From contig PYIZ01000029.1 in NCBI GenBank assembly GCA_003635265.1, forward strand, positions 77,796 through 141,795: a stretch of DNA of 64,000 nt. Direction: 5' to 3'. Below the pieces are notes generated by a model, which did no database searches, was not told the origin of the DNA, and was given only the letters and a program-made list of their open reading frames with translations. The DNA is from Candidatus Poribacteria bacterium (GTDB taxonomy: Bacteria; Poribacteria; WGA-4E; PCPOR2b). Position 1 is the stretch's first letter. Each line of letters starts with the position of its first letter. The position numbers were made by a program, and so were the translations under genes. Positions 6,725 through 57,648 of this stretch are shown in pieces.

Positions 6725-7783
6725 ATGAATCGCAAGCGCATTTCAAGCACAATGCTCCTCCTTCTTGTGCTACTAAATATCTTATTCCTATTGGCAAACA
6801 TCGAAGCGGCTGCTGCTGCGGACGGGGTCATTGCATTCCTATCGTCTCGGAATAGTAAACCACCGAACCGGGGTATCAAGACGACGATTTATCTGATAAA
6901 TGCAGATGGCACCAACGAACGGAAATGGCTCGAAAACCGTCGGTGTGGTTACTACTCTCCAACTTGGTCGCCTGATGGTCGGTTCGTTGCCTTCTCTACA
7001 TGCGCCAATGACAGCGTCCATATTTTTGTTAAAGATCTCCGTACCAGCAGACAAAAGAGGATAACCCATAAGTGGGCAGGAGTATATCCCGGATATTTGG
7101 TCCGTTCCTGGTCTGGGGATGGTAAATCGTTAGCACTTTCATGTTGGGAAGCTCCCCCTCACGACGCTTCAGACATCTGCATTATTGATGTTGAAGGCAG
7201 GCGATTAAAGAACCTAACACAGCTTCCCGGCGTTGAGGATAGTAGTCCAAGTTGGTCTCCAGATTCCTCTAAAATTGCGTTTACGTCGAGCCGCGATGGA
7301 AATGACGAGATTTATGTCATGGATGCGGATGGCGGAAGCCCGGTCAATCTGACCAAGCACTCCAGAACGGATGCCGCGCCGGACTGGTCTCCGGATGGGA
7401 AAAGAATTGTATTTTATTCCGATCGGGAAGGGCAATCCGATATCTATGTGATGAACCCCGACGGTGCCAATCTGGTTAAGCTAACAGATCACCCCGCACA
7501 GGATCGCCTACCTTCGTGGTCTCCTGATGGACGGTGGATCGCCTTCATGTCGACCCGAGAAGATAGGAACTGGGAGATTTATGTCATGGATGCGACCGGA
7601 AACAATCAGACGCGAATCACCAATCATCCGTTTGCTGTCGATGTGAAGCCAGTTTCACGAGTCACCAATCATCCGGATAAGGATGTGAGGCCAGTCTGGG
7701 TGATTCCTGATCGGTCGCTTTCTGTCAATCCGCAAGGTAACCACGCCACATTGTGGGGGCAGCTCAAATCAGACAAACAGTGA
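6725..7783 (+). CDS. Secreted PD40 (TolB-like) beta-propeller repeat protein
   Basis: ORF 6668..7783. The start is moved to MNRKRISSTMLLLLVLLNILFLLANIEAAAA (signal peptide) behind a GGGAGG RBS. Blades repeat as SPxWSPDG..IAF.S.RDGN.EIYVMDADG. Confidence 0.85.
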   Translation: MNRKRISSTMLLLLVLLNILFLLANIEAAAAADGVIAFLSSRNSKPPNRGIKTTIYLINADGTNERKWLENRRCGYYSPTWSPDGRFVAFSTCANDSVHIFVKDLRTSRQKRITHKWAGVYPGYLVRSWSGDGKSLALSCWEAPPHDASDICIIDVEGRRLKNLTQLPGVEDSSPSWSPDSSKIAFTSSRDGNDEIYVMDADGGSPVNLTKHSRTDAAPDWSPDGKRIVFYSDREGQSDIYVMNPDGANLVKLTDHPAQDRLPSWSPDGRWIAFMSTREDRNWEIYVMDATGNNQTRITNHPFAVDVKPVSRVTNHPDKDVRPVWVIPDRSLSVNPQGNHATLWGQLKSDKQ

Positions 7784-7871
7784 GGGAGTCATCGCTGCTA
7801 GAGACATGGAAGTTGACCATCATATGAAACGCCGGTTCGCCTTGTAGACCGATCCCGAAAGGAGATGAAAA

Positions 7872-8858
7872 ATGACTCGAAAAAGATTTCCATGGCTTGT
7901 TTTTATCGGGGCTACGGTGTTCAGTAATTTTGCTTTGTTATCCAATGTTTGGACACAAGCACCAAAAAAGGCACAAATCGCTTTTGTCTCCGGTCGCGAT
8001 GGGGATGGAGAAATTTACGTGATGGATACCGATGGCAAAAATCAGCGGAACCTCACAAACCATCCGGCATCTGATTTCGCGCCTACTTGGTCTCCTGATG
8101 GTCGAAAAATCGCGTTTGTATCGACAAGGCGAAGAGGAAATTCCGATATTTACGTGATGGATGCAAAGGGAAAAGATGCCCAGAGACTCACAGATCATCC
8201 TGAATCAGACGAGAAGCCCGCATGGTCGCCCGATGGTCGAAAAATTGCCTTCAGTTCTAATCGAGATGGAAATTGGGAAATTTACGTAATGAATACCGAT
8301 GGCAAAAATCAGCGCAATCTAACAAACCATCCGCGGAATGATACTTCGCCCGCATGGTCGTCTGATACTCGAAAGATTGCTTTTAGGCGTGTAGGTGGTG
8401 GAACTCCTGGTATTTATGTAATGGATACTGATGGACAAAATCTTCATCGATTAAACGATGAATTACATCGTGCAACTCAACCGGCCTTGTCACCTGATGG
8501 TCGCAGGGTTGCTTTCACCTTAGGCGGAAGGCCTGGCAATGACATCTATGTGATAGATGCCGATGGAAAAAATGTCCGGCAGCTTACAGGTCCCCCAATG
8601 GATGATATCTGTCCTGCGTGGTCTCCTGACAGCCGGCAGATTGTCTTCGCCTCACGGAAAAATATTCTAGAACAGAGAAATTTTCAAAACAGGAACTACG
8701 ACATCTACGTCATTGATGTCGATGGAAACAATCTCCGGAACCTGACAAACCATCAGAGTGATGACCAAGAACCCGCATGGTTTGATCCTACATTTTCTGT
8801 TGCTACTGCTGATAAGCGTCTGCTCACTTGGGGGTGGCTCAAACAACTTGGCCGATAG
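7872..8858 (+). CDS. Secreted PD40 (TolB-like) beta-propeller repeat protein
   Basis: ORF 7872..8858 with an AGGAG RBS and a hydrophobic N-terminus. At least six PAWSPDGRKIAF...EIYVM(D/N)TDGKNQRNLT blades. Confidence 0.88.
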   Translation: MTRKRFPWLVFIGATVFSNFALLSNVWTQAPKKAQIAFVSGRDGDGEIYVMDTDGKNQRNLTNHPASDFAPTWSPDGRKIAFVSTRRRGNSDIYVMDAKGKDAQRLTDHPESDEKPAWSPDGRKIAFSSNRDGNWEIYVMNTDGKNQRNLTNHPRNDTSPAWSSDTRKIAFRRVGGGTPGIYVMDTDGQNLHRLNDELHRATQPALSPDGRRVAFTLGGRPGNDIYVIDADGKNVRQLTGPPMDDICPAWSPDSRQIVFASRKNILEQRNFQNRNYDIYVIDVDGNNLRNLTNHQSDDQEPAWFDPTFSVATADKRLLTWGWLKQLGR

Positions 8859-8937
8859 ATGAATACGAAAATTAGGGTGCCTAAAAAATAGCAGATTGTA
8901 TTCAGTATCTGTGTCTTCCTTCTCGGCAACGGCAGTG

Positions 8938-9035
8938 CAAAATCCGCCAAGAACCGACTGTAGTCCAGCTTGGATAATTCCTGACCGGTTGTTCCCGGTT
9001 GATACACGATATAGCCGTATTACATTGCTCAGAAG
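8938..9035 (+). pseudogene. Relic of a PD40-protein C-terminus
   Basis: The translation DCSPAWIIPDRLFPVDTRYSRITLL parallels the end of the 6725..7783 protein (DVRPVWVIPDRSLSVNPQGNHATLW). It has no upstream propeller, no start codon, and the WG-x-LK tail has decayed. Confidence 0.45.
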
Positions 9036-9081
9036 GGAGTATCTGTTCAGAAAGTTTAGCGTTGGAACAGTACAGGAGGAA

Positions 9082-9789
9082 ATGATGAAACAGCAAAAAG
9101 GATTTGACTGGTTTAAGTTGGCGACGACCGCGATGTTTGTTACCGGGATTGGACTTTGCCTGTTTTCCATTTTTTCGTGGATCGTTTTTCGTGAATCTTT
9201 GTCAACAAACACCGTTAAGGTTAATTTAGATGTGCCACCGGTCTCATCTATTGAATATAAAGCCCAATACCTTCAAAACGATCCATCATCTGAGTGGGAA
9301 GGCGCCATATATCAGGATACGACAACACAGGAAGATACGACGCAAATTAATAAAATCCCTCCACAGTTTGAGCCGCTAGACAGCGACCTATTATCCGAGT
9401 TTGAAGAAATCGTGTTTGATGATATAGATCAGACCGATGAATTTGGACAAACGCCGGAAGAGCTTGAACAAATGGCTGCTGACGTCCTTCAAAAACTTAA
9501 TGAAGTTGTTGGGGAATATCGAAGCATAGCCGCCGAAAGTGCTGACCTATTAAAAATGCCACCAAGTCCTGAAATCGGCAAGCGCTGGAACAACCTTAAA
9601 CAAGGAAAAATAGATCTCATGCCTCACGTAATCAACCTCGTGCAGACCTATCTGTTATATACAAAAGATACTGTTGCATTTAATCCCGGTGGAAAAATTG
9701 CGGAGGCAATTGAGGGGATCTTGGAAGTAGAGCTAGGTACGGCACCAGATGGAAGACCGATAATGGTAAGCATATCTCCGCATTTTTAG
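9082..9789 (+). CDS. Hypothetical membrane-anchored acidic protein
   Basis: ORF 8896..9789. AGGAGG at 9074-9079 favours the ATGATG start at 9082/9085. One TM helix (LATTAMFVTGIGLCLFSIFSWIVF), then a D/E/T/Q-rich linker and a helical C-terminus. I recognise no family. Confidence 0.6.
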   Translation: MMKQQKGFDWFKLATTAMFVTGIGLCLFSIFSWIVFRESLSTNTVKVNLDVPPVSSIEYKAQYLQNDPSSEWEGAIYQDTTTQEDTTQINKIPPQFEPLDSDLLSEFEEIVFDDIDQTDEFGQTPEELEQMAADVLQKLNEVVGEYRSIAAESADLLKMPPSPEIGKRWNNLKQGKIDLMPHVINLVQTYLLYTKDTVAFNPGGKIAEAIEGILEVELGTAPDGRPIMVSISPHF

Positions 9790-43488: not shown

Positions 43489-44652
43489 TCAGCGGGAATG
43501 GTTCCAACTCGCTACGAAATCGTCAATGTCGAAGGCAGGCATCTCGTTGAAGATATAAGGAGTTGGCTCCTTGTTCTGGAAGCCGGGCACGAGTTGTGGC
43601 GAATCGGTCTGGAGTGCGCTATCCAACGAGAGGAACCGCTGCCACAGCAGTTCTCGCTCCGATTCCGTGAAGCGATCAGACATTGGCTCGCGCGGATGGT
43701 GGCGTATATTCTTCGCCCGTTTGGACAACAGCACGAGACAGGTCATTCGACCTTCTACCCCTGGGTGCAGTTCAGCCAACCCCTGACGAAATCCTCCTTC
43801 ATCTAACCCGATAATTGCGCGAAAAATGCGCTCAATCAAGGCGAGTTCGCCTCGTTCCAGATCGAGAAAATGTTCAAACTTAATCCCTAGATGCGCCGGT
43901 AACCGATCAATCAACTCCGGTTGCCAGACGAAGGAGTGTGCGTGTGGGTATATACCGTTACCAAAGGCACGATAGGTATATTGTAGGGTCCGACGCAACT
44001 TTGTGCTGTAGTTGCTACCCCAATGTAGAATCGCGTTCAGGTATACAACGCCATCGCCTGCCTTCAACTCAATCGGGATACCACTGTCCAACGGCTCATG
44101 TTCGCTTTTGGATAACTGCCGATTTTCCGCCTCGGTGTTAAACCTTCTGTGGCTGCCGGGAACTGCCCATAGCACATCATCGTCATACAGCGGGATGTTC
44201 CACTGCGTGTATGCTGGAGGGTTCGCTAGAGAGTCTGTGAACAATCCCTCCAACGGTCCCTCGCGCCATGACCGGATATCGCGATGCCAGTCCCACGGAC
44301 CGTGGTCTACCCGTGGGTTGCAGAACATGCCAAACTGCAACGGTGCTACCTCCTCCGCCTGCATTAACTGCTTGCTGATTCCGTAGGTGTTCTCATGAAA
44401 CACAAACTCTACCGACTCCGCTGCCTCTGGATCGACCACCCGATCGAATAACACCCGTGGTTGTGGACCTGACTCCCACTCTCCGCCCGGCGGTTCGCCC
44501 GGCTTGCGATTGTCCGCCCACCACCGCTTATGCCGTTCGAGCATCTGCTCACAATGTGTCCGCAACGACTCAAGTTGTTGCGGTGGGACACACTCGCGTA
44601 CGATGATGTAGCCTTTGGCCTGAAGTTCTTTCGTGTTTACGGCTGTCGTCAC
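43489..44652 (-). CDS. PhyH-like Fe(II)/2-oxoglutarate oxygenase (long paralog)
   Basis: ORF 43489..44721 (TTG start in the track). A REP palindrome covers 44709-44734, so I favour the in-frame GTG at 44650-44652 ((M)TTAVNTKELQAKGYIIV). The start remains uncertain. HxD in WDWHRDI, then PGSHRR and distal His in NAILHWGS. Confidence 0.6.
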   Translation of the reverse strand: MTTAVNTKELQAKGYIIVRECVPPQQLESLRTHCEQMLERHKRWWADNRKPGEPPGGEWESGPQPRVLFDRVVDPEAAESVEFVFHENTYGISKQLMQAEEVAPLQFGMFCNPRVDHGPWDWHRDIRSWREGPLEGLFTDSLANPPAYTQWNIPLYDDDVLWAVPGSHRRFNTEAENRQLSKSEHEPLDSGIPIELKAGDGVVYLNAILHWGSNYSTKLRRTLQYTYRAFGNGIYPHAHSFVWQPELIDRLPAHLGIKFEHFLDLERGELALIERIFRAIIGLDEGGFRQGLAELHPGVEGRMTCLVLLSKRAKNIRHHPREPMSDRFTESERELLWQRFLSLDSALQTDSPQLVPGFQNKEPTPYIFNEMPAFDIDDFVASWNHSR

Positions 44653-44708
44653 GGTATCCAATTTACCGATTTTGTTTCGGTTTATGTTAAGAAATTGTGC
44701 AACAGGAA

Positions 44709-44734
44709 CCGTAGGGAACAACGATCGTTGTTCC
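44709..44734 (+). repeat. REP-like element (GTAG head plus a perfect 20-bp palindrome)
   Basis: ccGTAG-GGAACAACGA|TCGTTGTTCC. Confidence 0.7.
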
Positions 44735-44746
44735 TTACTGCTGCAT

Positions 44747-44796
44747 CAATGAACCAATGAACTAATGAACCAGTGAACTAATGAACCAGTGAACTA
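44747..44796. repeat. Tandem 8-nt word array ((C/T)A(A/G)TGAAC), 6 units
   Basis: CAATGAAC CAATGAAC TAATGAAC CAGTGAAC TAATGAAC CAGTGAAC ta. Confidence 0.85.
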
Positions 44797-44802
44797 TAAC
44801 AG

Positions 44803-44830
44803 TTTTCACGTTTCACGCATCACGTTTCAT
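44803..44830. repeat. Tandem 7-nt word array (CACGTTT-type), same word as at 4260-4297
   Basis: CACG at 44807, 44814 and 44821, then CAT at 44828, with a 7-nt period. Confidence 0.8.
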
Positions 44831-44866
44831 ATTCTTAGCGTTTCACACTTTCTTTTAATATGAACC

Positions 44867-45811
44867 TCATTGCTTTCTTTGAATTTCTGCGGTCTGCTTC
44901 GCAACCGTCTCAAGTTGGTCTTCATCCCACTGTTCTTGCTGCTGCAATGCGTACAACGATGTATAACCCCCCGACCAATCAGGAGGCACTAGGCAGGGAC
45001 GGTCATCGTGGTGCGCCCAGCGTGCCGGCTCGCCCTTTACAATGGTGCCTTCATATCGACTGGGTAACGGATTGGCGGTGTAGGTGAAAGCGTCGGCTGA
45101 CGAATAGATGTTCAGCAATAACGGGCGCCCTTGGTCGGAAAGGTTCGGCTTGGAACCGTGAATAACGCGACAGTTATGAATCGTGATGGATCCGGCGGGT
45201 CCCTTCAGATACTCAACATTCTCTGTGTCAACGCTCTTGGCATCTTCGTCGCTGAGGCAACCGACCCATTGATTGCTGTCATTGTATTGATTGAAGAGTT
45301 CGCCCTTGTGGCTTCCGGCGATCGCACCGAGGGGTCCCTGATCATCGTCCACATCATAAAGATAGACCCCGATTGTGAGCGGACTATAGTTGGTATGGGG
45401 CCAATAGGTGATGTCTTGATGCCACTTAACCTCTTCGCCGCCTTCTGCCCATTTGAAGTTCAGTTTAGAGTGATGGAATTTCACGTCCGGTCCTACCAGA
45501 TCCGCTGCCACATCGACGATAATCGACTGCGAAGCAAACTCCCAATAGGTCGGGTGATGTTCAACCGGACTAGTCAAGCGGCGCAGGCGCGGATTGTCCG
45601 CCGTGTGACCCGGCTCCAGATCGAACACCATGTCTGACTTGTCCAAGGAACGGCTGCGCTGCACCATTTCGTCCGTAACGTCGATCAGACGTTCGACCCA
45701 ATCCTGCGGTACAATGCTTTCAACGAGCAGGTATCCGTTATCAAAGTAAAATTGACGTTGCTCTTGGGTGAGCGTTTCAGGTTCATGGGACAATATCTTC
45801 TCAGGTGTCAT
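44867..45811 (-). CDS. Phytanoyl-CoA dioxygenase (PhyH) family oxygenase
   Basis: ORF 44867..45811. WHQDITYW, AGSHKG, RVIHGSKPNLS. Confidence 0.82.
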   Translation of the reverse strand: MTPEKILSHEPETLTQEQRQFYFDNGYLLVESIVPQDWVERLIDVTDEMVQRSRSLDKSDMVFDLEPGHTADNPRLRRLTSPVEHHPTYWEFASQSIIVDVAADLVGPDVKFHHSKLNFKWAEGGEEVKWHQDITYWPHTNYSPLTIGVYLYDVDDDQGPLGAIAGSHKGELFNQYNDSNQWVGCLSDEDAKSVDTENVEYLKGPAGSITIHNCRVIHGSKPNLSDQGRPLLLNIYSSADAFTYTANPLPSRYEGTIVKGEPARWAHHDDRPCLVPPDWSGGYTSLYALQQQEQWDEDQLETVAKQTAEIQRKQ

Positions 45812-45860
45812 CAGATAACCTCCTGCTGTGCGGAATCAGCGATAGAATCTATGTTTTCTG

Positions 45861-46715
45861 CTAACCGGACCTTCGCTGATACAAAACCCGCCCATACGGT
45901 TCAGCGTTCCCATCGTATTTTGGGTTCAGGCGGCGAACCATTTCTTGCGCCTCTTGAGACCAATCTTCGGGGATAGGGTGTGTTTTGCTCGCTAGCTGTG
46001 CTTTGATGCGCTCCGGCAACTCGTAAAAATCGGGCTGGAACCACAGTGTGATGACTGTGCGGCGTTCGTCGGAGTTGTTCGCATACGAGGCGTGCAGCAA
46101 ACGTGAATCACCAATCAGCAGATCACCCGCTTTGACCGGGACATCAATTTCGTCGGGGCGCGTCGAAAATTCAGGGCGGTCTAAGTTTTTTGCCGCTGAA
46201 ATCTCACCGGCGTGTGGCTCCATAATTAAATCGTGGAGTGGGTTGTGCTTGTAATGCGACCCCGGAATCACACGGAGACAACCGTTATGGGGTGTGGTAT
46301 CGGTCAGGTAGTACATAAAGAAGACCTGCTGTGGTCGTGGGTCGTAGGTGCTTGGATCTTCCCAACCAAACCAGTCGTAATGCCAAAACAGCGGTGGACT
46401 GTGCGGCGGCTTGCTCAGGATATATCCACTGGTAAAGGTTGGATCCTTGAACCCCATTGATTTCAACGCGTCAAGCGACAGCTGCCACGCAATCAGTTCC
46501 GCGAAAACCGGGTCCTCGTAAGTTCTGAACGCGCTACCTTGAGAGCGAAAATATTTCCTATGCTCCTCTGTCATGTTTTCGCAGAGTTGGTCTGTCACGC
46601 TCCGAAGTTGGTCGAGTAGCGCATCACTCAGGATATTTTCAAAGACACAGAACCCTTCATTGACGAGTTGGTTATATTTCTCTTTCGACATACAGCCCCT
46701 CACATTACAGCCCAA
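45861..46715 (-). CDS. Phytanoyl-CoA dioxygenase (PhyH) family oxygenase
   Basis: ORF 45861..46715. WHYDWFGW, IPGSHYKH, LLHASYANNSDERR. Confidence 0.8.
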   Translation of the reverse strand: MGCNVRGCMSKEKYNQLVNEGFCVFENILSDALLDQLRSVTDQLCENMTEEHRKYFRSQGSAFRTYEDPVFAELIAWQLSLDALKSMGFKDPTFTSGYILSKPPHSPPLFWHYDWFGWEDPSTYDPRPQQVFFMYYLTDTTPHNGCLRVIPGSHYKHNPLHDLIMEPHAGEISAAKNLDRPEFSTRPDEIDVPVKAGDLLIGDSRLLHASYANNSDERRTVITLWFQPDFYELPERIKAQLASKTHPIPEDWSQEAQEMVRRLNPKYDGNAEPYGRVLYQRRSG

Positions 46716-47327: not shown

Positions 47328-47906
47328 TTACGGGAGATTGTTGGCAGCTCGAATCTCTTCTTTGCTATACGCCTCATCCATCCATTCAGTAATACGCCAT
47401 TCTTGCTTACTGGAATCCTTATTTCTTCTCAACTCAAAGGAAAACACATTATTCCCTTCTGCGAACCAACCCGTAAATCCTCCTTCAAGGGCCTCTCCAT
47501 CAGCGACAAACCCTTGGATCCGATAATGGTTTCTGACCTCTGCTCGCGTCCGATCTGTATTCAGTTGTATCTCGGGTGGTTCAGACAATTCAATCTCAAT
47601 ATCTTGGAACATGTCAAAAACGCGCTTTGCTGCATCTCTTTCGTCCCGGATATCGTCAAATACAACATCATCCGTTTTATCGTCGTTTGTTCCCATATCT
47701 GAAACGTAAAGAAATCCATCTTCCCAGAACGCACTCATATACCTATCAAGGTCTTCGCTCTGATAACCTTCACGCCAGTTTTTCAGAACTTGATTAATTA
47801 GAACAAGCTCTGGTGGTTGGGGTATGGGACTACTTACATCCCCGCAACTTGTAAGCACACTAAAAACGAGCAATAGCCCAATGATTTTAGCGAATACTTT
47901 TAACAT
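47328..47906 (-). CDS. Lipoprotein with an NTF2-like (SnoaL/DUF4440-type) domain
   Basis: ORF 47328..47954. The start is moved to MLKVFAKIIGLLLVFSVLTSC (lipobox LTSC) 7 nt after GGAGGGAG. The VLKNWREGYQSEDLDRYMSAFWEDGFLY pattern fits the NTF2 fold. Confidence 0.55.
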   Translation of the reverse strand: MLKVFAKIIGLLLVFSVLTSCGDVSSPIPQPPELVLINQVLKNWREGYQSEDLDRYMSAFWEDGFLYVSDMGTNDDKTDDVVFDDIRDERDAAKRVFDMFQDIEIELSEPPEIQLNTDRTRAEVRNHYRIQGFVADGEALEGGFTGWFAEGNNVFSFELRRNKDSSKQEWRITEWMDEAYSKEEIRAANNLP

Positions 47907-48430
47907 GGCTAAACTCCCTCCATAAGAACCAGATGTGTTCGCGCGACCTTTCAACCCGCAGGAGCGTTAGGTGACAACCTGAATTATAGAATATGGACGT
48001 ATTTCATTTTCATTAGTGTTAGACAATGAATTCTTCCTTCATATTTTGGGGTCTGGAATTAGTAGAGGTGAGGAAGAATGTGTTTTTTTGGTCCATCCGG
48101 GAATCGAAGGAATTTAGGCGACTTGGTGATACACGCCTCGTGGAAGTCGGGCGAACTGCATTCTAACTCTGAATAAAATCGTTTCCATGATGATACGCCG
48201 TAGCATTGTTTGCTGGATATGATACCTATAATGGTTAAATACTATTCATTATAGCGTGTATCTAGGGTGTGTTCTTGAAAAAGAACTAACTGGAAGGAGA
48301 GTAATAAAAAACATGTGATAGGGGGCGTACCCTCCGAATTACGACTCTGACCATGTACGTATGGCGTTTCACGATTCGGACCGGCACTGGAACAACAGGT
48401 AATAACTCGCGCTGTTCTATCCTTATTTCG

Positions 48431-48460
48431 TTGACTTTCGTCCGATGGTTCATGTATGAT
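48431..48460 (+). promoter_or_regulatory. Candidate sigma70 promoter (extended -10) for the TIM-barrel / orphan / BKACE operon
   Basis: TTGACT (48431-48436), 18-nt spacer, TGtATGAT with the -10 hexamer TATGAT at 48455-48460. GGGGGAG RBS precedes ATG 48495. Confidence 0.45.
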
Positions 48461-48494
48461 TGGACAATCAAATCAGTGCAATGGGGGAGCACCC

Positions 48495-49373
48495 ATGATT
48501 AAACTCGGTTGTAATAGCTTGGTGAAAGACAGAGATAACCCCGGCGGGTGGATAGATATTGAGGCGATGATTGATTTAATTCACACGTTGCGGCTCGATA
48601 TGATTGATTTTCAACTCGATAGAGGGTTTCGTTCTCTAGAACCCGCATATCTTCGTAGGATCAAGATTCTGTGCCATAAGTACGGGTTACCGATAGGTTT
48701 CATAGGAGCCGGCAGCGGATTTGTCGGCACCGCTCAATCGCCGGATGGGAGTGTGGTTGGTGCGTCGTTATCGCCGGAAGAATTACAACAGCGGATCGAT
48801 GTAGTCAAGGAAGCTGTGGATGTTGCCGTGTTCATGGGTGCCCCACTGATTCGTCTATTCGGCGGCGGCGTGCCTGAAGCGACCGAGAACCGTGAGGCGG
48901 TGTGGTCAACGATGATCTCTGGCTTCCAAGCAGTCTCCGACTATGCAGCTGAGAAAGGTATCCTCATCGGTCTTCACAACCATCCGCCGGCTGTGGAACC
49001 GACGAGCGACGATATCTTGCGCATCCTGAACGACGTTGACCGTGAGAACTTCACCTTCATCTTGGACACAGGTAGATGGCGCGGTGCACCGACAAGCAGG
49101 GAAGAGACTTCCGATTCAAGCGAGAATATCTACAAATACATGGAACAGACGGCACCCTACGCCTCATACGTGCGTGCCAAGATCTATAAGGTTGATAGCG
49201 GTAGGGAGGAGTTACTCGATTATAGACGTATTGTTGATATTCTCAAGAAAGTGAATTTCAACGGGAATATGTCGATTGTTTTCGAGGATCAGGGCAATCA
49301 GTGCGGTTACGCCGAAGCTATTGAGTTAGCAGTCAAACATTTACGGGGATTGCTTGCGGAGTCAGAGGAGTGA
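48495..49373 (+). CDS. Xylose isomerase-like TIM-barrel protein (sugar phosphate isomerase/epimerase family)
   Basis: ORF 48456..49373. The start is moved to MIKLGCNSL. Motifs: PLIRLFGG and ILIGLHNHP. Confidence 0.7.
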   Translation: MIKLGCNSLVKDRDNPGGWIDIEAMIDLIHTLRLDMIDFQLDRGFRSLEPAYLRRIKILCHKYGLPIGFIGAGSGFVGTAQSPDGSVVGASLSPEELQQRIDVVKEAVDVAVFMGAPLIRLFGGGVPEATENREAVWSTMISGFQAVSDYAAEKGILIGLHNHPPAVEPTSDDILRILNDVDRENFTFILDTGRWRGAPTSREETSDSSENIYKYMEQTAPYASYVRAKIYKVDSGREELLDYRRIVDILKKVNFNGNMSIVFEDQGNQCGYAEAIELAVKHLRGLLAESEE

Positions 49374-49379
49374 GAAAGG

Positions 49380-51404
49380 ATGACCTCAACCGAAAAGCAG
49401 GAAATTCCGTGGAAGAACATAGGCGAACCACTAGCAGATTTGCTTCGGTATGAACGTGAGATTGGCTACTACGAGCACGCAAGCTACGCTCTGCTGTCAA
49501 CGGTGGTCCATGAAGCGGCAGATTCGGCGTGGCAAAAATTCCTATTGGCGGGGGATAACTTCGCTTCAGTGGTTGAGCAGGTCATCACCATATCCAATAG
49601 AGAATCCAAAAATCCCAAAGAGGTTCTTGACCCGATCCACGAACTAGTCAACGCCGCTTACACTCACTCGCCAGAACGAGCAGAGCAGTTCCTGAACGTG
49701 TACCTGAAGTACAGACCGAGTTTCCCAGATCCCATCCGAGAGGAGTTGGACGCGTTCTCAATGCGGGGGAAACGTCGGGTTGCCCTACGTGCGATTGCTT
49801 TCGCAGCGGAGATGGAGCGTCTTCGACCATTCCAGTCAGACAGTAGTATAGCATTAGCAGTGTCCGAGCATTGGTACGAACAGATTCTGCAAGGGGGCAT
49901 AACCGCACGTCAAGCGCGTAGGATACCTGCACAGATACTCACCGCAAAAAAACGCTTGCTTAACCATCTGCGTGAGATTGAGGAAGATAACCAGATCGGT
50001 GATGAGGTCATCTTCGATAGGTATGTGGATGTTTTTAAGTCAACCAATATTTTGGCGTTGACGGACGTTATTATTGGGATGCACCGCTTCAATCTGATAC
50101 ATAGTTTTCATGTCAAATTTAATGTAGAACAGATTGAACGTTTCCTAAAAAACTTTCCGAAGACGGAGGTGTTAAACCGCTTTGAGAAGTTAGAGAAGTG
50201 GCTGGGTAAATACCACAAGACAAATCACGACGGCACGATATTAACTCCACCGCTGATCGATTTTTTATCGAAGGATTCGGACTTTGACGCGCTTCTATCT
50301 GAGCTTGACCGATACAGAGCGGATACACGGAACGGACGATTCGATATAAACAACATTTTGCAACGAGATCTGGAATTCAGGCGCTTCGCCTATGAATACA
50401 CACGCGTTCTGGAACCGTTGACCTATCAACTCCAAAATCGATACCCACCGCCGAAATCGAACGAAGAACTGTACCAACTGTTCAATCAGCTTGAAGAACT
50501 ACCGCCGGTTGCCGCTGATGAACCCCGTTTAAGCAAACAACACCTCTCAGAAGTTGGCCGTACTGCTTATGAAGCCGTGGAATTTCTCAGGTTTTTGAAA
50601 GGATTCCGAGGACGCACAAGTAGGCACATCGTAGTGGTGGGAAATGACCGTTACGGACGGCAGTGGGTTGTAGAGCCTATTGAGGCGTATCTCAAAGAGG
50701 GGTTCACGCTTAGGTATGATCGCGTGCGTTCCGGCACCTCTACGAGATTGAGTGTGCCCCCTGCGTTCCCAAGAGACTTTGTCAAAGAAATTAGCGAGCA
50801 GATGCCTCATATCGTCATTGTGGACGCGTCCCATGCGCCACCGAACAACGATGTGATGCAACTTTCCCGCGGTCTCCGAAGCTATGCCCACTGGTTCGCT
50901 GTATTCAACGACCTCCGCTCCGAGGGCAACATTGCTATATACCAAGATGAGAGTTCCCTGCCTGCAGAGCATCTTCCTGAACTGATGAAATGGCATGACT
51001 ACGTTGCGCGGAGAGAACAGTTACAGGAGTGGGTCGCGCCGGGACAGACTTACCGGGTGACAACTTGGGCGCCAGAGTTAAAAGACACTGTGATACTAGG
51101 TGATATGCAAGTGAAGCGTTATCCGGCGGTCTCCCATGAGGAAATAGGGGGAGATCTACCGCTAGTGATTCTGGCAAACCCCATCATATACCGCACAGAG
51201 GGGACTGACCTTCCAAGTGTCCTACGAGGAACCACACCGCGTTACTTCGATGATCCCGAAGCCCACGCAGACGATAGTATTGTGTTCGGGTTTGGTTCTC
51301 ATGGGCTTGAAACCCGACTCGAAGGAATGAGCACGGAACAGTTTGTTCAGACGGTTCAGGGATACATCAAGGAAGAGATTGATAGACTGTTAGAGGACTC
51401 ATAA
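49380..51404 (+). CDS. Hypothetical 674-aa protein, no recognisable family
   Basis: ORF 49380..51404. Its start is 6 nt after the upstream stop, with a GAAAGGA RBS. The N-terminal half looks helical. The C-terminal half contains RHIVVVGNDRYG and HIVIVDASHAPPN strand-like motifs. I recognise no catalytic signature. Confidence 0.6.
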   Translation: MTSTEKQEIPWKNIGEPLADLLRYEREIGYYEHASYALLSTVVHEAADSAWQKFLLAGDNFASVVEQVITISNRESKNPKEVLDPIHELVNAAYTHSPERAEQFLNVYLKYRPSFPDPIREELDAFSMRGKRRVALRAIAFAAEMERLRPFQSDSSIALAVSEHWYEQILQGGITARQARRIPAQILTAKKRLLNHLREIEEDNQIGDEVIFDRYVDVFKSTNILALTDVIIGMHRFNLIHSFHVKFNVEQIERFLKNFPKTEVLNRFEKLEKWLGKYHKTNHDGTILTPPLIDFLSKDSDFDALLSELDRYRADTRNGRFDINNILQRDLEFRRFAYEYTRVLEPLTYQLQNRYPPPKSNEELYQLFNQLEELPPVAADEPRLSKQHLSEVGRTAYEAVEFLRFLKGFRGRTSRHIVVVGNDRYGRQWVVEPIEAYLKEGFTLRYDRVRSGTSTRLSVPPAFPRDFVKEISEQMPHIVIVDASHAPPNNDVMQLSRGLRSYAHWFAVFNDLRSEGNIAIYQDESSLPAEHLPELMKWHDYVARREQLQEWVAPGQTYRVTTWAPELKDTVILGDMQVKRYPAVSHEEIGGDLPLVILANPIIYRTEGTDLPSVLRGTTPRYFDDPEAHADDSIVFGFGSHGLETRLEGMSTEQFVQTVQGYIKEEIDRLLEDS

Positions 51405-51431
51405 TATTACAATATTTTGGAGGAACCGATT

Positions 51432-52253
51432 ATGGCAAAGACAATTGTTTCGGTAGCGGTAGTGGGATCGGGACCCACCAAGGAGATGAATCCTGCTGTA
51501 CCGTATACGCCTAAGGATATTGCACAAGCCGCGATTGAAAGCGGTCGAGCCGGCGCGTCGATTGCACACATCCACGTGCGCGACCCCGAAACAGGAATCG
51601 TGTGTTCAAGGCTTGAACTCTTCGCAGAGGTTGTGGATCGGATTCGCCAAGAGTCCGACATCTTAATCAACCTCACAACGAGCGGGGGAAATATCCCCGG
51701 AAAAAACATCATCGAAGAACGACTTGAGCCCGTCACCTTAAAACCTGAAATTTGTTCCCTTGATGTCGGCTCACTGAACTTTGGAGACCGGATGTTTCTC
51801 AATCCGCCGGAGTGGGGGCGAGCTGCAGCCCAACGAATGCGTGAGCAGGGGGTCAAACCGGAAATTGAGGTCTTCGACGCGGGGCACATACGACAGGCAA
51901 TACACTTAATTAACGAAGGACTGTTTGAGGATCCACCGTATATCCAACTGTGTATGGGTGCTGGCTGGGGTATTGAAGCGACGCCGGACAATATGCTGTT
52001 CATGCAGAACCTATTGCCGCCCGATATCCCTTGGTCTGTTATGGGTGTCGGTCGGACACAGTTGCCGATGATTACGATGGGCATCATTCTAGGCGGTCAT
52101 ATTCGCGTCGGTTTTGAAGACAATATCTATCTCCGCAGGGGCGTGCTGCTGAAAAGCAACGCCCAAATGGTCGAGGTCGCTGTGAATTTGGTCCAGCAGC
52201 TACAAGGTGAAGTTGCCACCCCTAGCGACGCACGTCAAATTCTTGGAATATAA
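51432..52253 (+). CDS. Beta-keto acid cleavage enzyme (BKACE / DUF849, 3-keto-5-aminohexanoate cleavage enzyme family)
   Basis: ORF 51417..52253 (TTG in the track). ATG 51432 sits 7 nt after [57 protein letters not shown] is the characteristic N-terminus. Confidence 0.8.
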
Positions 52254-52297
52254 TTAAGGATACTCGCGTTGCTAGGGCGTGTTGACATTTGACAGCG

Positions 52298-52333
52298 CGT
52301 AGGTTGGGTTGAACGGGAACCGTGAAACCCAAC
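52298..52333 (+). repeat. REP-like element, short variant of 43287-43388
   Basis: cGTAGGTTGGGTTGAACGGgaaCCGTGAAACCCAAC. Confidence 0.7.
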
Positions 52334-52346
52334 GATTTTCCCTCCC

Positions 52347-52370
52347 CGTAGGTCGGGCATCTTGCCCGAC
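52347..52370 (+). repeat. REP-like element (GTAG head plus hairpin)
   Basis: cGTAGGTCGGGCAtctTGCCCGAC. It has the same loop and architecture as 6400 and 9861. Confidence 0.75.
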
Positions 52371-52374
52371 TCAT

Positions 52375-52448
52375 AGCCCCAGCGGGGCGATATGTGTATA
52401 GCATTCATGGTAAAGCTACCCCTAAAGCCCCAGCGGGGCGACATGTGT
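52375..52448 (+). repeat. Two 23-nt direct repeats separated by 28 nt
   Basis: AGCCCCAGCGGGGCGATATGTGT (52375-52397) and AGCCCCAGCGGGGCGACATGTGT (52426-52448), 22/23 identical. Each holds a GCCCC-agc-GGGGC mini-hairpin. Confidence 0.8.
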
Positions 52449-52563
52449 GCTTGCGTCATTTTAGAGAAGGTTTAGTGCATGGGTAAGCGTTCAAGTACTA
52501 TGAATTTCCCTCTCCGTTTGTGACCTGAACGGTTGCGTCCATAGAAAGAGGTTGACTCGCTTG

Positions 52564-53439
52564 ATGTCACGGAAAAAGGGTTCACTGGATTTTCTAGAGG
52601 GTGTCACGGAGGAGACTGTTGAATGGCGAATGCTCAATATGGATTCCGAGTTGGTCACAGCCAACCTGAGTCGTACAATCGGTCCGGGCATTCACAGTAC
52701 CCTCGATCCCCACTGGAATTATAACGCCAAACGTGGCGACGGGGTCGTTCCGCTCAATAACATCCTGAGATTTGAAACCTTCGGCGTACACTGTCCTTTG
52801 GGGACAAAGCTGCGTCAGGAAACGCGGTTACGACTGGTGACGACACGGGGCGAGAACGGAACCCTAAAGCGCGGTCATCTTGCGATGAACTGTGAACTGT
52901 TCAACAAAGACGACAACTCCCAACGACCGGTCGGACGCGCCGAATTTTGGATGGCACTGACCCGTCCGCTTGCCGCCCCGGGTCAACATAGACCAACCGA
53001 CGTACCGGAGCCGATCAGGTTCTTGAAGGAGCATGAAGTGACTGAGTGTGATCTGGTCAGTCGAGACATTGAGTCATACCGCTGCCAAGCCTTCGGCGAC
53101 GGACAGGCCTTCCACGACACGATACCGCATGTCTTCCATATGGACAGGTCGGATATCTACCGACACATTAATACGGCTGTGTACATGAACCAAGCACAGG
53201 ATTACCTAGCCCTCCTGTATCACAAAGTCGGGGGGGACGCCGGGCGGCTGCGATTCCGCGAAATCACAATCTATTTTCGCAAACCTTTTGTGCCGGGACA
53301 GGCGGCGGAAGTAGAGTTGGATTTCGTTGAATATGCAGACCGTTTCCATGGTGCTGTCCGCCTCTATCATTCTGATGGTGAGAAAGGTCGAAGTGAGCGG
53401 ATCTCGGTGGCAATGGAAACACGGGGTCCCCTTCATTGA
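52564..53439 (+). CDS. Hotdog-fold thioesterase (acyl-ACP thioesterase-like, probably double hotdog)
   Basis: ORF 52552..53439 (TTG in the track); the first ATG is at 52564. The C-terminal half has the 4HBT-type signature HMDRSDIYRHINTAVYMNQAQDYL. The start is uncertain. Confidence 0.5.
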   Translation: MSRKKGSLDFLEGVTEETVEWRMLNMDSELVTANLSRTIGPGIHSTLDPHWNYNAKRGDGVVPLNNILRFETFGVHCPLGTKLRQETRLRLVTTRGENGTLKRGHLAMNCELFNKDDNSQRPVGRAEFWMALTRPLAAPGQHRPTDVPEPIRFLKEHEVTECDLVSRDIESYRCQAFGDGQAFHDTIPHVFHMDRSDIYRHINTAVYMNQAQDYLALLYHKVGGDAGRLRFREITIYFRKPFVPGQAAEVELDFVEYADRFHGAVRLYHSDGEKGRSERISVAMETRGPLH

Positions 53440-53531
53440 AAAATCGCTACGGAGGTACGGCGGTCACAGTAAGGCAGCAAGGAAGAAAATGGGAGAACGC
53501 GACGTTCTGTTATCCCGTTTTCCGGTCTGCT

Positions 53532-53563
53532 CACTTTCACACCTACACACTTTCACACTTTCA
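53532..53563. repeat. Tandem 8-nt word array (CACTTTCA-type), 4 units
   Basis: CACTTTCA CACCTACA CACTTTCA CACTTTCA. It lies about 50 nt upstream of the GMC oxidoreductase start. Confidence 0.8.
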
Positions 53564-53610
53564 ATTTTTCTCCGCGTTTCAGCGGTTGATTTTGGATTGA
53601 GGAGGATGAA

Positions 53611-55170
53611 ATGAAATACGACACAATCATCGTTGGAGCAGGAGCGGCTGGAGCGATACTTGCAGCCCGACTCACCGAAGATCCGGGGCGATCCGTCCTG
53701 TTACTGGAAGCAGGTCCTGACTTCCCAGATTTTGAGCAGCTTCCGGAGGAAATCAAGTACGGTTATGGACGTGACCGCAACATCTGGGCGCGAGCCTTTG
53801 GTCGCCCGACCAAATTCGGTTGGGATTACACCGCCCGCGCAACCGATAGTGCCCCCACCATGTTTGTCCCACGCGGCAGGATAGTTGGTGGTTCAAGCGC
53901 GGTGAACGCGCAAATCTTCCTCCGCGGCGTGCCAGAAGACTACGATACGTGGGCTTCTTTGGGCAACGACAAATGGAGTTACTTGGAACTGCTCCCCTGC
54001 TTTCGCAGAAACGAGGCGGATCCCGACTATAGCGATTCCTATCACGGCAACACGGGTCCCATCCGCGCACGGCGGCACACATACGAAGAGTTGAACCCTG
54101 AACAGGCAGCTTTCTACGATGCGTCTCTGGATGCGGGCTATCCGGATTGTCCCGATCACAATGACCCCGACTCTACGGGCGTGGGTACACTTGCGCTCAA
54201 TAACCCGGACGGCATCCGCTGGAGCACAGCGATCGGCTACCTCGACCCAGCGCGCCATCGTCTGAACCTCACGATTAAAGCAAACTGCTTGGTACACCGG
54301 CTTCTGTTTGAGGGCAAGCGGGCTGTTGGCGTCCAAGTGGAGAGCGGCGGCGAGATGTTCGATGTGTATGGCGAGGAGATCGTTCTATCCGGCGGTTCTA
54401 TCGGTTCACCGCATATCCTGATGCTTTCGGGTATCGGACCCGCCGATCATCTCAAGACGGTTGGTACTCCTGTCGTGCACGACCTGCCAGGCGTTGGGCA
54501 GAACCTGAGAGACCATCCGCAGGTGTCGGCTACGTTGAGAGTAAAGGAGACGTTTCTGCCCAATGGCACAGAGCCGCGACTTCAGATCGGGCTCCGATAC
54601 ACGGCGGAGGGTTCCAACCTTCGCAACGACATGTTTCTCCTCCCAACCGCTTTCGCCACCGAGGAGGGGTATCTCGTCGAATCTCACTCCGTACCTTTGG
54701 GGTTTCACATTGCTGCTTGCATATACCTTGCTGTCGGCGCGGGCGAAATCCGGCTTGCTTCGTCCGATCCGCATCAACAGCCTGTTCTAGATTATAACTA
54801 CCTGACAGAGTCCTTTGACCGCGAACGGCTGCGCGAGTCGGTGCGTATCATCATTGATCTGCTCGAACACGATGCCTTCAAGAAGTTGGTAGCGGAACGG
54901 CTTGCGCCGACGGATGCCGATCTAGCGACGGACAGAACCTTGGACGAGTGGCTGCTGCGCCAAGTAGCTACCAGTCACCATATCTCATCGACCTGCAAGA
55001 TGGGACCGGACTCTGACCCAATGGCTGTGGTTGATCAGTACGGTAAGGTCTACGGTGTCGAGGGGCTGCGGGTGGCAGACGCTTCGATTATGCCCGACTG
55101 CATTCGTGCCAACACCAACGTGACGACTATGGTCATCGGAGAGCGCATCTCGGACTTCATGATGAGCTGA
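53611..55170 (+). CDS. GMC-family FAD oxidoreductase (choline dehydrogenase-like)
   Basis: ORF 53611..55170 with a GAGGAGG RBS. YDTIIVGAGAAGAILAARLTED, and a C-terminal HHISSTCKMG active-site region. Confidence 0.88.
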   Translation: MKYDTIIVGAGAAGAILAARLTEDPGRSVLLLEAGPDFPDFEQLPEEIKYGYGRDRNIWARAFGRPTKFGWDYTARATDSAPTMFVPRGRIVGGSSAVNAQIFLRGVPEDYDTWASLGNDKWSYLELLPCFRRNEADPDYSDSYHGNTGPIRARRHTYEELNPEQAAFYDASLDAGYPDCPDHNDPDSTGVGTLALNNPDGIRWSTAIGYLDPARHRLNLTIKANCLVHRLLFEGKRAVGVQVESGGEMFDVYGEEIVLSGGSIGSPHILMLSGIGPADHLKTVGTPVVHDLPGVGQNLRDHPQVSATLRVKETFLPNGTEPRLQIGLRYTAEGSNLRNDMFLLPTAFATEEGYLVESHSVPLGFHIAACIYLAVGAGEIRLASSDPHQQPVLDYNYLTESFDRERLRESVRIIIDLLEHDAFKKLVAERLAPTDADLATDRTLDEWLLRQVATSHHISSTCKMGPDSDPMAVVDQYGKVYGVEGLRVADASIMPDCIRANTNVTTMVIGERISDFMMS

Positions 55171-55364: not shown

Positions 55365-56567
55365 CTATTTGCGTTGCCGTGAGGTCTCCGGCACCAGCCA
55401 GAGGAAGATTGCCACCGCCATATACCCGACCCCTGATAGAACTACAGCGGAAAGCCCCAATCCCGACACATCTGCAATCTCACCGACAATCCAAGGTCCC
55501 GCTGCGTGACCGACATCACCTATGAGCCGCCAGACTGCAAGGAACTCTCCTGTGCCATCACGTGGAGCAAGGTCAGCTCCTGTCGTCATCATTGTACCGG
55601 AACCGAGTCCGTTGCCAAGCCCCATTACAATGCCTGCAATCAGTAGAGTCAAGTAGCTGCCTGTCAAAGGCACCATCGCCATTCCCGTGGCGAAGATGAA
55701 AAAGCAGGGAACGATAGCGTATCTCCTGCCAAACCGATCCATAATAAATCCCGCCACCGGAAACATCACCATATCGATAAATGAGGAGAGACTGAAAATC
55801 AACCCCACTGTCTGACGGTCTAGCCCGATGACATCGCGTCCATAAAGAATAATAATAATCCGTCGCCCTGCTCGGAGGGTTTGGACGCAGATCTGCCCCA
55901 TTCCAGCCGTGAGTAATGCACGGTAATGTGTCTTCAATATGTCAATAAACTGTTTCAGATGCAGCCGACGAGGCCCTACAACTGAAGGACGTTTTGTTTC
56001 GTGGATAAAGAAAAGGCAGAACAGGAAATTGACCCCCATAATCGCTGCACAGGCAAAGAATGGGGCACTCAGACCGTAATATTTACCGATGAAGCCCCCA
56101 ATCGCAGGTCCTAAGAAAGTGCCGATCCGACTGACTCCGCCGAACATTGCGAGCGATCTGCCCCGTTCCTCAATTGGGACCGCATCCGTCAAATAGGTAT
56201 ATCGGGCGATAGTCCATAGGGCGCTACCGATTCCCGCGATGAGTTGGTAGACAAGCAGTTCAAGAACAGTGTGGGCGAGTCCAACGGCGAGGGTGGATAA
56301 TCCCACCACGGCAGCACCAATTAACATTGATGATTTTCGCCCTGTCCGTTCGATTAAGATACCGGCTGGCACATCAGCGATTAGGACGCCGACGCCCTGC
56401 ATACCGAGGACGAGCCCCATCAGGCTATAGGAGGGATTAAAGGATTTTGCGTATTCAGGGAGGATTGGGATGAGGATGCCACCGCCAACGGAAAGCAGAA
56501 AGGCGGGGAAATAGATCGGCAGGATGAGCGATCGCCGCGTAAACGGTTGCTCTCGTGAATTCTGCAT
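55365..56567 (-). CDS. MFS transporter
   Basis: ORF 55365..56687. The start is moved to MQNSREQPF (ATG 56565-56567), which removes the overlap with the upstream gene. The hydrophobicity pattern suggests about 12 TM segments. Confidence 0.8.
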   Translation of the reverse strand: MQNSREQPFTRRSLILPIYFPAFLLSVGGGILIPILPEYAKSFNPSYSLMGLVLGMQGVGVLIADVPAGILIERTGRKSSMLIGAAVVGLSTLAVGLAHTVLELLVYQLIAGIGSALWTIARYTYLTDAVPIEERGRSLAMFGGVSRIGTFLGPAIGGFIGKYYGLSAPFFACAAIMGVNFLFCLFFIHETKRPSVVGPRRLHLKQFIDILKTHYRALLTAGMGQICVQTLRAGRRIIIILYGRDVIGLDRQTVGLIFSLSSFIDMVMFPVAGFIMDRFGRRYAIVPCFFIFATGMAMVPLTGSYLTLLIAGIVMGLGNGLGSGTMMTTGADLAPRDGTGEFLAVWRLIGDVGHAAGPWIVGEIADVSGLGLSAVVLSGVGYMAVAIFLWLVPETSRQRK

Positions 56568-56580
56568 AGTCGAGTTTTCG

Positions 56581-57648
56581 CTATCCGTACCTTTCTCGAA
56601 GAATTTCTGCCGCTTTCGCTTCGTTTTTGAGCTTTTGGTATGCCTCGTCGATAGGAATTTCTGCTGCGCTGCCGGGCGCAAATCCACAGTCTGGATTCAG
56701 AGTGATACGCTCAGGGGACAGGTGGCGCAACGCGCTTTCAACCCGTGCAACAATCTCTTCAGGCGTGTCAATATGTTCGCCTCGACAATCGACGCAGCCG
56801 AGACCGACGGTCTTATCTTCAGGGATCTCCTTCAACACTGCAAGATCGCCAGCGACTGGAATCGTGAACTCCATCAGATACTGATCAACTTTGAGCCGTT
56901 TCAGGTAAGGCAGAATCGGTTCATATCCCCCTTCGCCAATCCAGCCATCACGCCCTTTATTACGTCGGCACAGGTGGATGGCAATCTGAATCCCATCAAC
57001 ACTGTCAATAATCTGATTCAGCAGATCGACACACAAATCCATCTCACGGTCAGGATCCTCGTAACTCGCCCGGACAGACCCATCAACAAAGAGACACAGA
57101 TGTGGATCATCAAACTGAGCGACGGTTGCCCCTGCCTCCCTGATGGCGATAAGTTCGTTTCGCAAGATATCGACGAGATCATACATGAATGACTCGCGTG
57201 TTGGGTATGCGTCCCGCGATTTTTTTGGGTCCCACATCCGCTGTCCTAACAGATACGGAGATGGGAGACACACCTTTGTCAGTCGATCGGTGTGCTGCTG
57301 CAAAAATGCTGCCTCCGCTGCAATAACCCCCGGCTGCTTGAGGCGTATTTTATCGACCGCGGTTGTCCAGTGCATCCCCTCCTGCATACTCAACTCGAAT
57401 CCACTTGCGATGTCTGCGATTACGCCGATGTAGGAACGCCGCCGCCACTCGCCATCGGAGATGATGTCGATCCCCGCAGCTTCCTGTAGCGCAATGATGT
57501 ATCGGACAGCGGCATCCATCTCTTTTTGCGTTTCAGCTTCAGAACGTTGTAGCTCGTTTTCCAGTGCAAGCAGATCGCGGACAAAATCAGACCGTGGCAT
57601 ACTGCCCACAACAGTGGTTGGGAATAGGGGGAGTTGTTGATTTAACAT
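56581..57648 (-). CDS. Cobalamin-independent methionine synthase-like methyltransferase (MetE C-terminal domain family)
   Basis: ORF 56581..57648. LPLFPTTVVGSMPRS, IAIHLCRRN, LNPDCGF (Zn-ligand motifs). Confidence 0.78.
   Translation of the reverse strand: MLNQQLPLFPTTVVGSMPRSDFVRDLLALENELQRSEAETQKEMDAAVRYIIALQEAAGIDIISDGEWRRRSYIGVIADIASGFELSMQEGMHWTTAVDKIRLKQPGVIAAEAAFLQQHTDRLTKVCLPSPYLLGQRMWDPKKSRDAYPTRESFMYDLVDILRNELIAIREAGATVAQFDDPHLCLFVDGSVRASYEDPDREMDLCVDLLNQIIDSVDGIQIAIHLCRRNKGRDGWIGEGGYEPILPYLKRLKVDQYLMEFTIPVAGDLAVLKEIPEDKTVGLGCVDCRGEHIDTPEEIVARVESALRHLSPERITLNPDCGFAPGSAAEIPIDEAYQKLKNEAKAAEILRERYG

Follow-up and report, generated by a model that had tools for sequence, protein, structure and literature searches.

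The window analysed here is a stretch of 64,000 nucleotides (nt) from Candidatus Poribacteria bacterium (assembly GCA_003635265.1, contig PYIZ01000029.1, positions 77,796 to 141,795 of the forward strand), within which five consecutive genes encode, in this order, a xylose isomerase-like TIM barrel, a protein of 674 amino acids (aa), a BKACE (an enzyme that cleaves beta-keto acids), a 291-aa protein and an oxidoreductase of the GMC family (Table 1). The main subjects of this account are the BKACE gene and the 291-aa gene that follows it, and the question of how far the remaining three belong with them. An earlier note on this DNA had joined all five into one candidate pathway, with carnitine as a potential substrate and the 291-aa protein as a hotdog thioesterase. 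Its gene calls hold up: the five are real open reading frames (ORFs), all confirmed in the ORF list, and the intergenic distances of 6 nt between the TIM-barrel and 674-aa genes and 27 nt between the latter and the BKACE gene stand as given. Two starts are set by alignment to homologues. The BKACE ORF is listed from a TTG at 51417, whereas the homologues place its start at the ATG at 51432 ('MAKTI...'); the fourth ORF is listed as 52552-53439, whereas the homologues point to the ATG at 52564 and hence to a protein of 291 aa. Both the 27-nt gap before the BKACE gene and the 310-nt spacer after it follow from these homologue-supported starts.

Table 1. Genes and intergenic features of the five-gene locus (positions of the window)
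Feature	Coordinates	Strand	Basis or remarks
TIM barrel, xylose-isomerase-like (AP_endonuc_2)	48456..49373	+	PF01261, E 6e-20; alternative start 48495
674-aa protein, unnamed family	49380..51404	+	Residues 1-410 helical repeat, 415-674 alpha/beta domain
BKACE (beta-keto acid cleavage enzyme)	51432..52253	+	PF05853, E 9e-100
Spacer with repeats and hairpins	52254..52563		310 nt between the BKACE and 291-aa genes
Putative double-hotdog acyl-CoA thioesterase, 291 aa, unnamed family	52564..53439	+	Motif and weak family matches
GMC-family FAD oxidoreductase, choline-dehydrogenase-like	53611..55170	+	PF00732 and PF05199

The BKACE, a single-copy gene in the window genome, spans the entire PF05853 profile (formerly DUF849; profile positions 1-274 of 274), with a score of 333.9 bits where the cut-off is 24.8. 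Across 13 sequences, H51, H53, E149/E151, R230, E234 and D235 are invariant, with H51 and H53 as the zinc ligands and E149/E151 as the acidic pair, and the catalytic residues align with the 'HLHIRED', 'PEVEVY' and 'HIRCGFEDN' segments of Kce, the BKACE of lysine fermentation (PDB 2y7d). Judged by these residues, the enzyme is catalytically intact and not of the inactive G7 type. The catalytic role of the glutamate is taken from E171 of BKACE15 (PMC11961710), an enzyme that is compared with the window BKACE by role only. With Kce itself, the window enzyme shares the family and the fold (184 bits to 2y7d), along with the zinc-binding and catalytic residues. However, its score of 299.4 bits on its best NCBIfam model, that of the lysine-fermentation Kce, lies below the equivalog cut-off of 382, and it carries Gly19 at the position of Kce Glu14, a residue reportedly described by Bellinzoni in 2011 as holding the amino group of the substrate. 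It also falls outside the clade that holds the Kce-like Acetoanaerobium sequence, and its locus is devoid of lysine-fermentation neighbours.

A BKACE tree was built from 20 rows, comprising plasmid sequences and the loci compared here, all labelled by genomic context, with adjacency to an L-carnitine dehydrogenase gene set by coordinates. Three clades can be discerned in it: one (support 97/94) unites the six BKACEs with an adjacent L-carnitine dehydrogenase gene, which come from Bacillus, Burkholderia, Streptomyces, Novosphingobium, Agrobacterium and Parasedimentitalea; a separate one (99/98) holds the window BKACE together with that of locus L022, the Spirochaetaceae sequences and paralogues from another poribacterial genus, g8; and a third consists of the Acetoanaerobium, Priestia and Haloarcula sequences. 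The loop after the first strand, which bears on the substrate, differs between the first two, being G-[AS]-G-[DEQ]-[TS] in the carnitine-linked clade and G-S-[GNH]-P-[TM] in that of the window enzyme, where it reads G-S-G-P-T. Those BKACEs that are followed by a homologue of the 291-aa gene fall in one subclade (84/82) inside the 99/98 clade, and within the latter clade it is the Spirochaetaceae sequences (96/90), not L022, that the window BKACE joins, which fits a horizontal spread of the pair. So far, the clade has been observed only in sponge-symbiont-type genomes. One of its members, a g8 paralogue 80% identical to the window enzyme (L072:566-3356), has an SDR dehydrogenase gene on one side and an NHL/SGL beta-propeller (lactonase-like) gene on the other; this is the classical dehydrogenase-plus-BKACE arrangement, and the clade has therefore diversified.

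More distant homologues of the 291-aa protein (51-65% identity) are encoded immediately behind a BKACE, in surroundings that are otherwise unrelated; all told, the two genes adjoin each other in four kinds of such genomic context. In L022, the pair is preceded by an enolase-superfamily gene. In loci L024 and L021 and in a 3.7-Mb contig, the two reading frames overlap by 11-47 nt and are flanked by genes for a CDP-alcohol phosphatidyltransferase and threonyl-tRNA synthetase; the 90% protein cluster of the L024/L021 type includes an NCBI protein from a metagenome-assembled genome (MAG) of a sponge-associated member of the Spirochaetaceae. On two contigs with P0176, an acetoacetate decarboxylase gene stands beside the pair, a neighbour that is notable because acetoacetate is a product of the BKACE reaction. 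Comparison with the window proteins found no relative of the TIM barrel, the 674-aa protein or the GMC enzyme in L022 or L024, and neither the TIM-barrel nor the GMC Pfam families occur among the called neighbours in any of the outside contexts of the pair. Conversely, no homologue of the 674-aa protein found elsewhere lies beside a BKACE, TIM-barrel or GMC gene. On balance, the interpretation given in the earlier note is supported in part: these distributions go against the five-gene pathway, but the BKACE and 291-aa genes behave as a functional pair, as in the carnitine scheme, and the other three are neighbours specific to one genus. Within the sample of the phylum, the 291-aa family is present in 26 of 151 genomes, belonging to only two genera.

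The 291-aa protein has no match in NCBIfam or in Pfam, in the latter even at an E value of 10, and since the family databases are silent the name hotdog thioesterase in the earlier note was an inference and not an observation. An alignment of 29 family members has D201 and H205 invariant and N207 and Y211 in at least 90% of the sequences, giving the motif D201-x3-H205-I-N207-x3-Y211 in the window protein and the spacing D-x3-H-[IV]-N-x3-Y in the family. With a catalytic Asp at the start of the central helix, D-x3-H-[VI]-N-x3-Y is the catalytic-motif spacing of 4HBT_2 and acyl-acyl carrier protein (acyl-ACP) thioesterases, unlike the His/Glu pattern of FabZ. Weak matches to 4HBT_2 are found for four of the 29 members (best E 0.011) and to Acyl-ACP_TE_C for one (E 0.11). 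Both halves of the protein carry an 'R-x-P-x-x-P-G' strand motif; an hhalign comparison of the N-terminal with the C-terminal half was not significant, though it did align two strand motifs of the 'R-[KP]-P-x-x-P-G' type. Against the sequences of the PDB, the family profile gave only a marginal FabZ match, through the C-terminal strand motif (E 1.9). In existing annotation, one relative bears the NCBI name 'hotdog fold domain-containing protein', and fragments are listed by JGI as acyl-ACP thioesterase. Too few acyl-ACP thioesterases were found in the phylum to improve the profile, and the predicted complex of the BKACE with the 291-aa protein scored 0.00, a value that counts neither for nor against binding. 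On the strength of its motifs, the protein is likely a double-hotdog thioesterase. The coupling of a BKACE to a putative thioesterase proposed in the earlier note gains from the adjacency of the pair in distant genomes and from the thioesterase-type hotdog motifs, the hotdog fold itself being putative.

Among close relatives, the picture is one of broad collinearity with local erosion. The order TIM barrel, 674-aa gene, BKACE, 291-aa gene and GMC gene recurs in 16 Candidatus Poribacteria loci, where it is followed on the other strand by an MFS gene, a MetE-like gene and a macro-domain gene. However, these are genus-level relatives with protein identities of 80-97%, and their synteny therefore carries little functional weight; the conservation of the five-gene neighbourhood, which had been put forward as a check on the pathway, extends no further than this circle. 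Even here, a 3.5-kb insertion separates the 291-aa gene from the GMC gene in locus L005, about 400 nt are inserted before the BKACE gene in another locus, and the 674-aa gene of one genome is split by an insertion of roughly 1 kb. A natural deletion variant is the closed sister genome G003 (L108, G003:C1:4375000-4392000, positions 7411-9527), in which one deletion has left of the 674-aa gene only some 46 codons at the start and 18 at the end, and another has taken the 291-aa gene entirely and the GMC gene down to residues 478-506, the TIM barrel (83% identical) and the BKACE (91%, frame open) both remaining intact. The 674-aa, 291-aa and GMC genes are thus dispensable in nature, as the split copy of the first of them also indicates.

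The spacer between the two genes of the pair contains a 23-nt direct repeat in two copies, with 0 expected, and several hairpins. No plus-strand terminator-like site came up in it on scanning, nor anywhere before the 291-aa gene, and the sole plus-strand promoter-like site scoring 10/12 lies ahead of the cluster at 48431-48460; scans for promoters, terminators and repeats cannot decide whether the five genes are co-transcribed. In the 16 sister genomes, the corresponding gap measures between 57 and 615 nt, so that the repeat-filled spacer of the window is secondary, having grown in this lineage from a gap that was short at first, between two genes that overlap in the Spirochaetaceae. Repeats of another kind occupy part of the 171-nt gap upstream of the GMC start, where a 16-nt unit of the CACACTTT / CACACCTA type is present in three overlapping copies at 8-nt spacing (53527-53558).

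Turning to the genus-specific neighbours, the TIM barrel has weak IolE/IolO-like NCBIfam matches far below the cut-off and does not belong to the conserved pair; its neighbourhood holds together within the genus only. With 420 bits to PRK02106, the GMC enzyme is of the choline-dehydrogenase-like kind. It also passes the model of the mycofactocin dehydrogenase MftG (TIGR03970; 398 bits, cut-off 387.45), an identity that was considered and set aside: of the mycofactocin system, no radical SAM enzyme MftC above the cut-off was found in the window genome, where the best match to the model reaches 129.6 bits against 265, and the automatic name is therefore probably wrong, an over-annotation. The substitution of this flavoenzyme for an NAD-dependent dehydrogenase, which the earlier note had suggested, is an unproven candidate role whose sole basis is adjacency within one genus.

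Neither Pfam (even at an E value of 10) nor NCBIfam matches the 674-aa protein, and Pfam domains are absent from 35 members of its family. Its C-terminal 385 residues recur in ten longer proteins (797-1138 aa), in which no Pfam domain was found either. The family has 213 representatives at an E value of 0.001 or better among 1.84 billion clusters, and in species genomes its members come almost entirely from Candidatus Poribacteria. An AlphaFold2 model based on the 35-sequence alignment (predicted local distance difference test score, pLDDT, 89.9) has an all-helical repeat in residues 1-410 and an alpha/beta domain in residues 415-674. A Foldseek search of the PDB with this model returned only generic TAL-effector-like helical repeats at template modelling (TM) scores below 0.2, which are uninformative, and the family profile gave only chance-level matches to ribosomal protein L16 among PDB sequences. 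The many conserved polar residues (N422, R424, S451, D482, N510, N600 and D624) suggest that the protein is probably an enzyme. Its modelled alpha/beta domain faintly resembles phosphoribosyltransferases (PRTs), the nearest known systems being the phosphoribosyl pyrophosphate (PRPP)-dependent polysaccharide ribofuranosyltransferases (PDB 7shg, 8a0c) and the type I PRTs (HPRT, PyrR, UPRT); however, the family has no sequence match to any PRT family, and where the PRPP-binding motif of type I enzymes has two acidic residues and then a T/S-G-x-T loop, the protein has one acidic residue only, with no conserved phosphate loop of this form after it.

The genomic surroundings of this family are unrelated to one another. 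Homologues in a Dehalococcoidia MAG (L017, 9707-11317) and in an unrelated metagenome contig (L026, 3270-4787) adjoin a gene for a protein of about 505-536 aa with a weak match to GHL10 (glycosyl hydrolase-like 10), and others adjoin a biotin-ligase-like gene or topoisomerase I. The window genome itself has a second copy, a 561-aa paralogue 42% identical to the 674-aa protein and without its first ~110 residues, which is encoded ~200 nt upstream of the E1-alpha, E1-beta and E2 genes of a 2-oxoacid dehydrogenase (G000:C52:207064-208704; L100:7059-8744). Of the genus-level relatives in which the family was found, nearly all have both copies.

The cluster is bordered by further genes. Downstream, the adjoining MFS transporter ORF (listed as 55365-56687, minus strand, beginning with a GTG at 56687) and the end of the MetE-like ORF (56581-57648, minus strand) share ~107 nt, an overlap that recurs in the sister loci. 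Upstream and divergent from the cluster are three consecutive paralogues of PhyH-family dioxygenases (43489-46715, minus strand) and a gene for a weakly SnoaL/NTF2-like protein of 208 aa (47328-47954, minus strand). PhyH genes occur also near the BKACE pair on the contigs with P0176.

Taken together, the locus is best seen as a mosaic that contains a conserved two-gene module of BKACE and 291-aa protein, and not as a single five-gene pathway, a reading that may be given a probability of roughly 0.6. The BKACE would move the acyl part of a beta-keto acid onto coenzyme A (CoA), yielding acetoacetate and an acyl-CoA, and the 291-aa protein, most likely as a double-hotdog thioesterase, would hydrolyse that acyl-CoA to a shortened acid and free CoA, the same two-step logic as that of cdhC plus cdhB in the breakdown of carnitine. 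Adjacency is the one link shown between this module and the TIM barrel, the 674-aa protein and the GMC enzyme. The module, in turn, appears to have moved horizontally between sponge-symbiont lineages, namely Poribacteria and Spirochaetaceae. Several observations weigh against this reading. A homologue of the 291-aa protein (~57% identity) stands alone in locus L023 and in genus g8 (9/9 genomes), even though the g8 genomes hold three to four BKACE genes each; and G003 retains an intact BKACE without the partner, which calls for caution in treating even the pair as obligatory. The 291-aa protein reaches no family above threshold, an NCBIfam scan of the 29 members gave no relevant match, and hhalign comparisons of the family with 15 poribacterial 4HBT_2 proteins and with the thioesterase of the carnitine operon of Bacillus cereus were not significant; a single-sequence AlphaFold2 model of the protein (pLDDT 33) is unusable. 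Moreover, the BKACE tree, with its 20 rows, is small.

These difficulties with the partner are what a different account of it builds on, namely that the 291-aa protein is a hotdog-type dehydratase or hydratase, or even a non-catalytic companion, and that its adjacency to the BKACE reflects a different chemistry or mere co-transfer. With no thioesterase family at threshold, a dehydratase (FabZ) as the sole, if marginal, match among solved structures, and homologues free of an adjoining BKACE in g8 and L023, such an account has some footing; yet the spacing of D201, H205, N207 and Y211 fits the motif of 4HBT_2 and acyl-ACP thioesterases and not the His/Glu pattern of FabZ, the weak Pfam matches are to thioesterase families, and the reading frames overlap those of BKACEs in the Spirochaetaceae, leaving it distinctly unlikely. 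A cooperation of all five products on a substrate other than carnitine, e.g., a sugar-acid or polyol-derived hydroxy acid, through an operon invented within the genus, may be viewed as unlikely, too. Here, isomerisation or dehydration of the substrate would fall to the TIM barrel, the conversion of an alcohol to the beta-keto group to the GMC enzyme and another step to the 674-aa protein, with the BKACE and thioesterase completing the route. The tight spacing of the first three genes, the promoter-like site ahead of them with no terminator-like site on the plus strand before the 291-aa gene, the weak IolE/IolO-type matches of the TIM barrel and the adjoining MFS transporter gene would all suit such an operon; against it, the families are unlinked outside one genus, the deletions in G003 spare only the TIM barrel and the BKACE, the 674-aa gene is split in one sister genome, and 3.5 kb have been inserted before the GMC gene in L005.

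The carnitine route itself has its model in the plasmid operon of B. cereus E33L, which comprises a BKACE, an L-carnitine dehydrogenase and a thioesterase, and whose Pseudomonas counterpart is cdhCAB. As there, the BKACE gene of the window stands directly beside a hotdog-type thioesterase-like gene, and the expected logic is the same, with a Claisen-type cleavage to acetoacetate and an acyl-CoA followed by hydrolysis. On this route, carnitine or a close analogue would become the 3-keto acid through oxidation by the GMC enzyme, the BKACE would cleave this acid and the hotdog protein would hydrolyse betainyl-CoA, with the TIM barrel and 674-aa protein as accessories. The collinearity of the five genes in 16 sister genomes, the operon parallel and the choline-dehydrogenase-like character of the GMC enzyme, carnitine being a substituted choline, can be cited in its favour. 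So can ecology: according to PMC5649159, carnitine is present in sponges, and its use by some of their symbionts is assumed. In the same paper, however, Poribacteria are grouped with Caldilineae, Anaerolineae and Spirochaetae, separately from the SAR202 cluster, and carnitine metabolism is ascribed to symbiont group I, without these passages stating which of the clusters that group is.

Several differences set the window locus apart from the carnitine system. It is without an NAD-dependent L-carnitine dehydrogenase, and no clear one is present in the genome, which is 88% complete: the best matches to the B. cereus enzyme, at 33-34% identity, are ordinary homologues of 3-hydroxyacyl-CoA dehydrogenase (3HCDH) on other contigs, whereas true orthologues have 48-57%. 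The BKACE is about 45% identical to that of the B. cereus operon, lies outside the clade of the six dehydrogenase-linked BKACEs and departs from them in its substrate loop. The operon thioesterase has 158 aa, against the 291 aa and two putative hotdog halves of the window partner, with no detectable similarity between them. Outside the genus, no GMC gene accompanies the pair, and the collinear sister genomes are too closely related to redress the balance. With the tree, the substrate loop and the dehydrogenase search in agreement, nothing tested points to carnitine, and the five-gene carnitine-type route sketched in the earlier note becomes highly improbable. Dehydrocarnitine is probably not the substrate of the window BKACE either, given its separate clade and the unclassified family of its partner. 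The top plasmid matches of the BKACE, 12 of 30 of which lie beside a carnitine dehydrogenase gene, were dropped as evidence, as ~46% of the plasmid records with a BKACE carry that gene.

The BKACE family is a textbook case of functional diversity hidden within one family, and the locus defines a further clade of it with a dedicated partner that is not recognised by the family databases. A bolder version of the mosaic reading, in which a mobile module shared across sponge-symbiont phyla degrades a beta-keto acid, possibly sponge-derived, that no characterised BKACE group handles, and the 674-aa protein is the founder of a PRT-like enzyme family, is for now speculative and rather doubtful. The 674-aa family is nonetheless a clean target for the discovery of function, as it combines a confident predicted structure with the lack of a clear structural relative. 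A more general lesson is that conserved gene order among closely related MAGs of a single genus does not make a pathway. As for the BKACE and its partner, the identity of their substrate would reveal what abundant uncultured symbionts take from their host.

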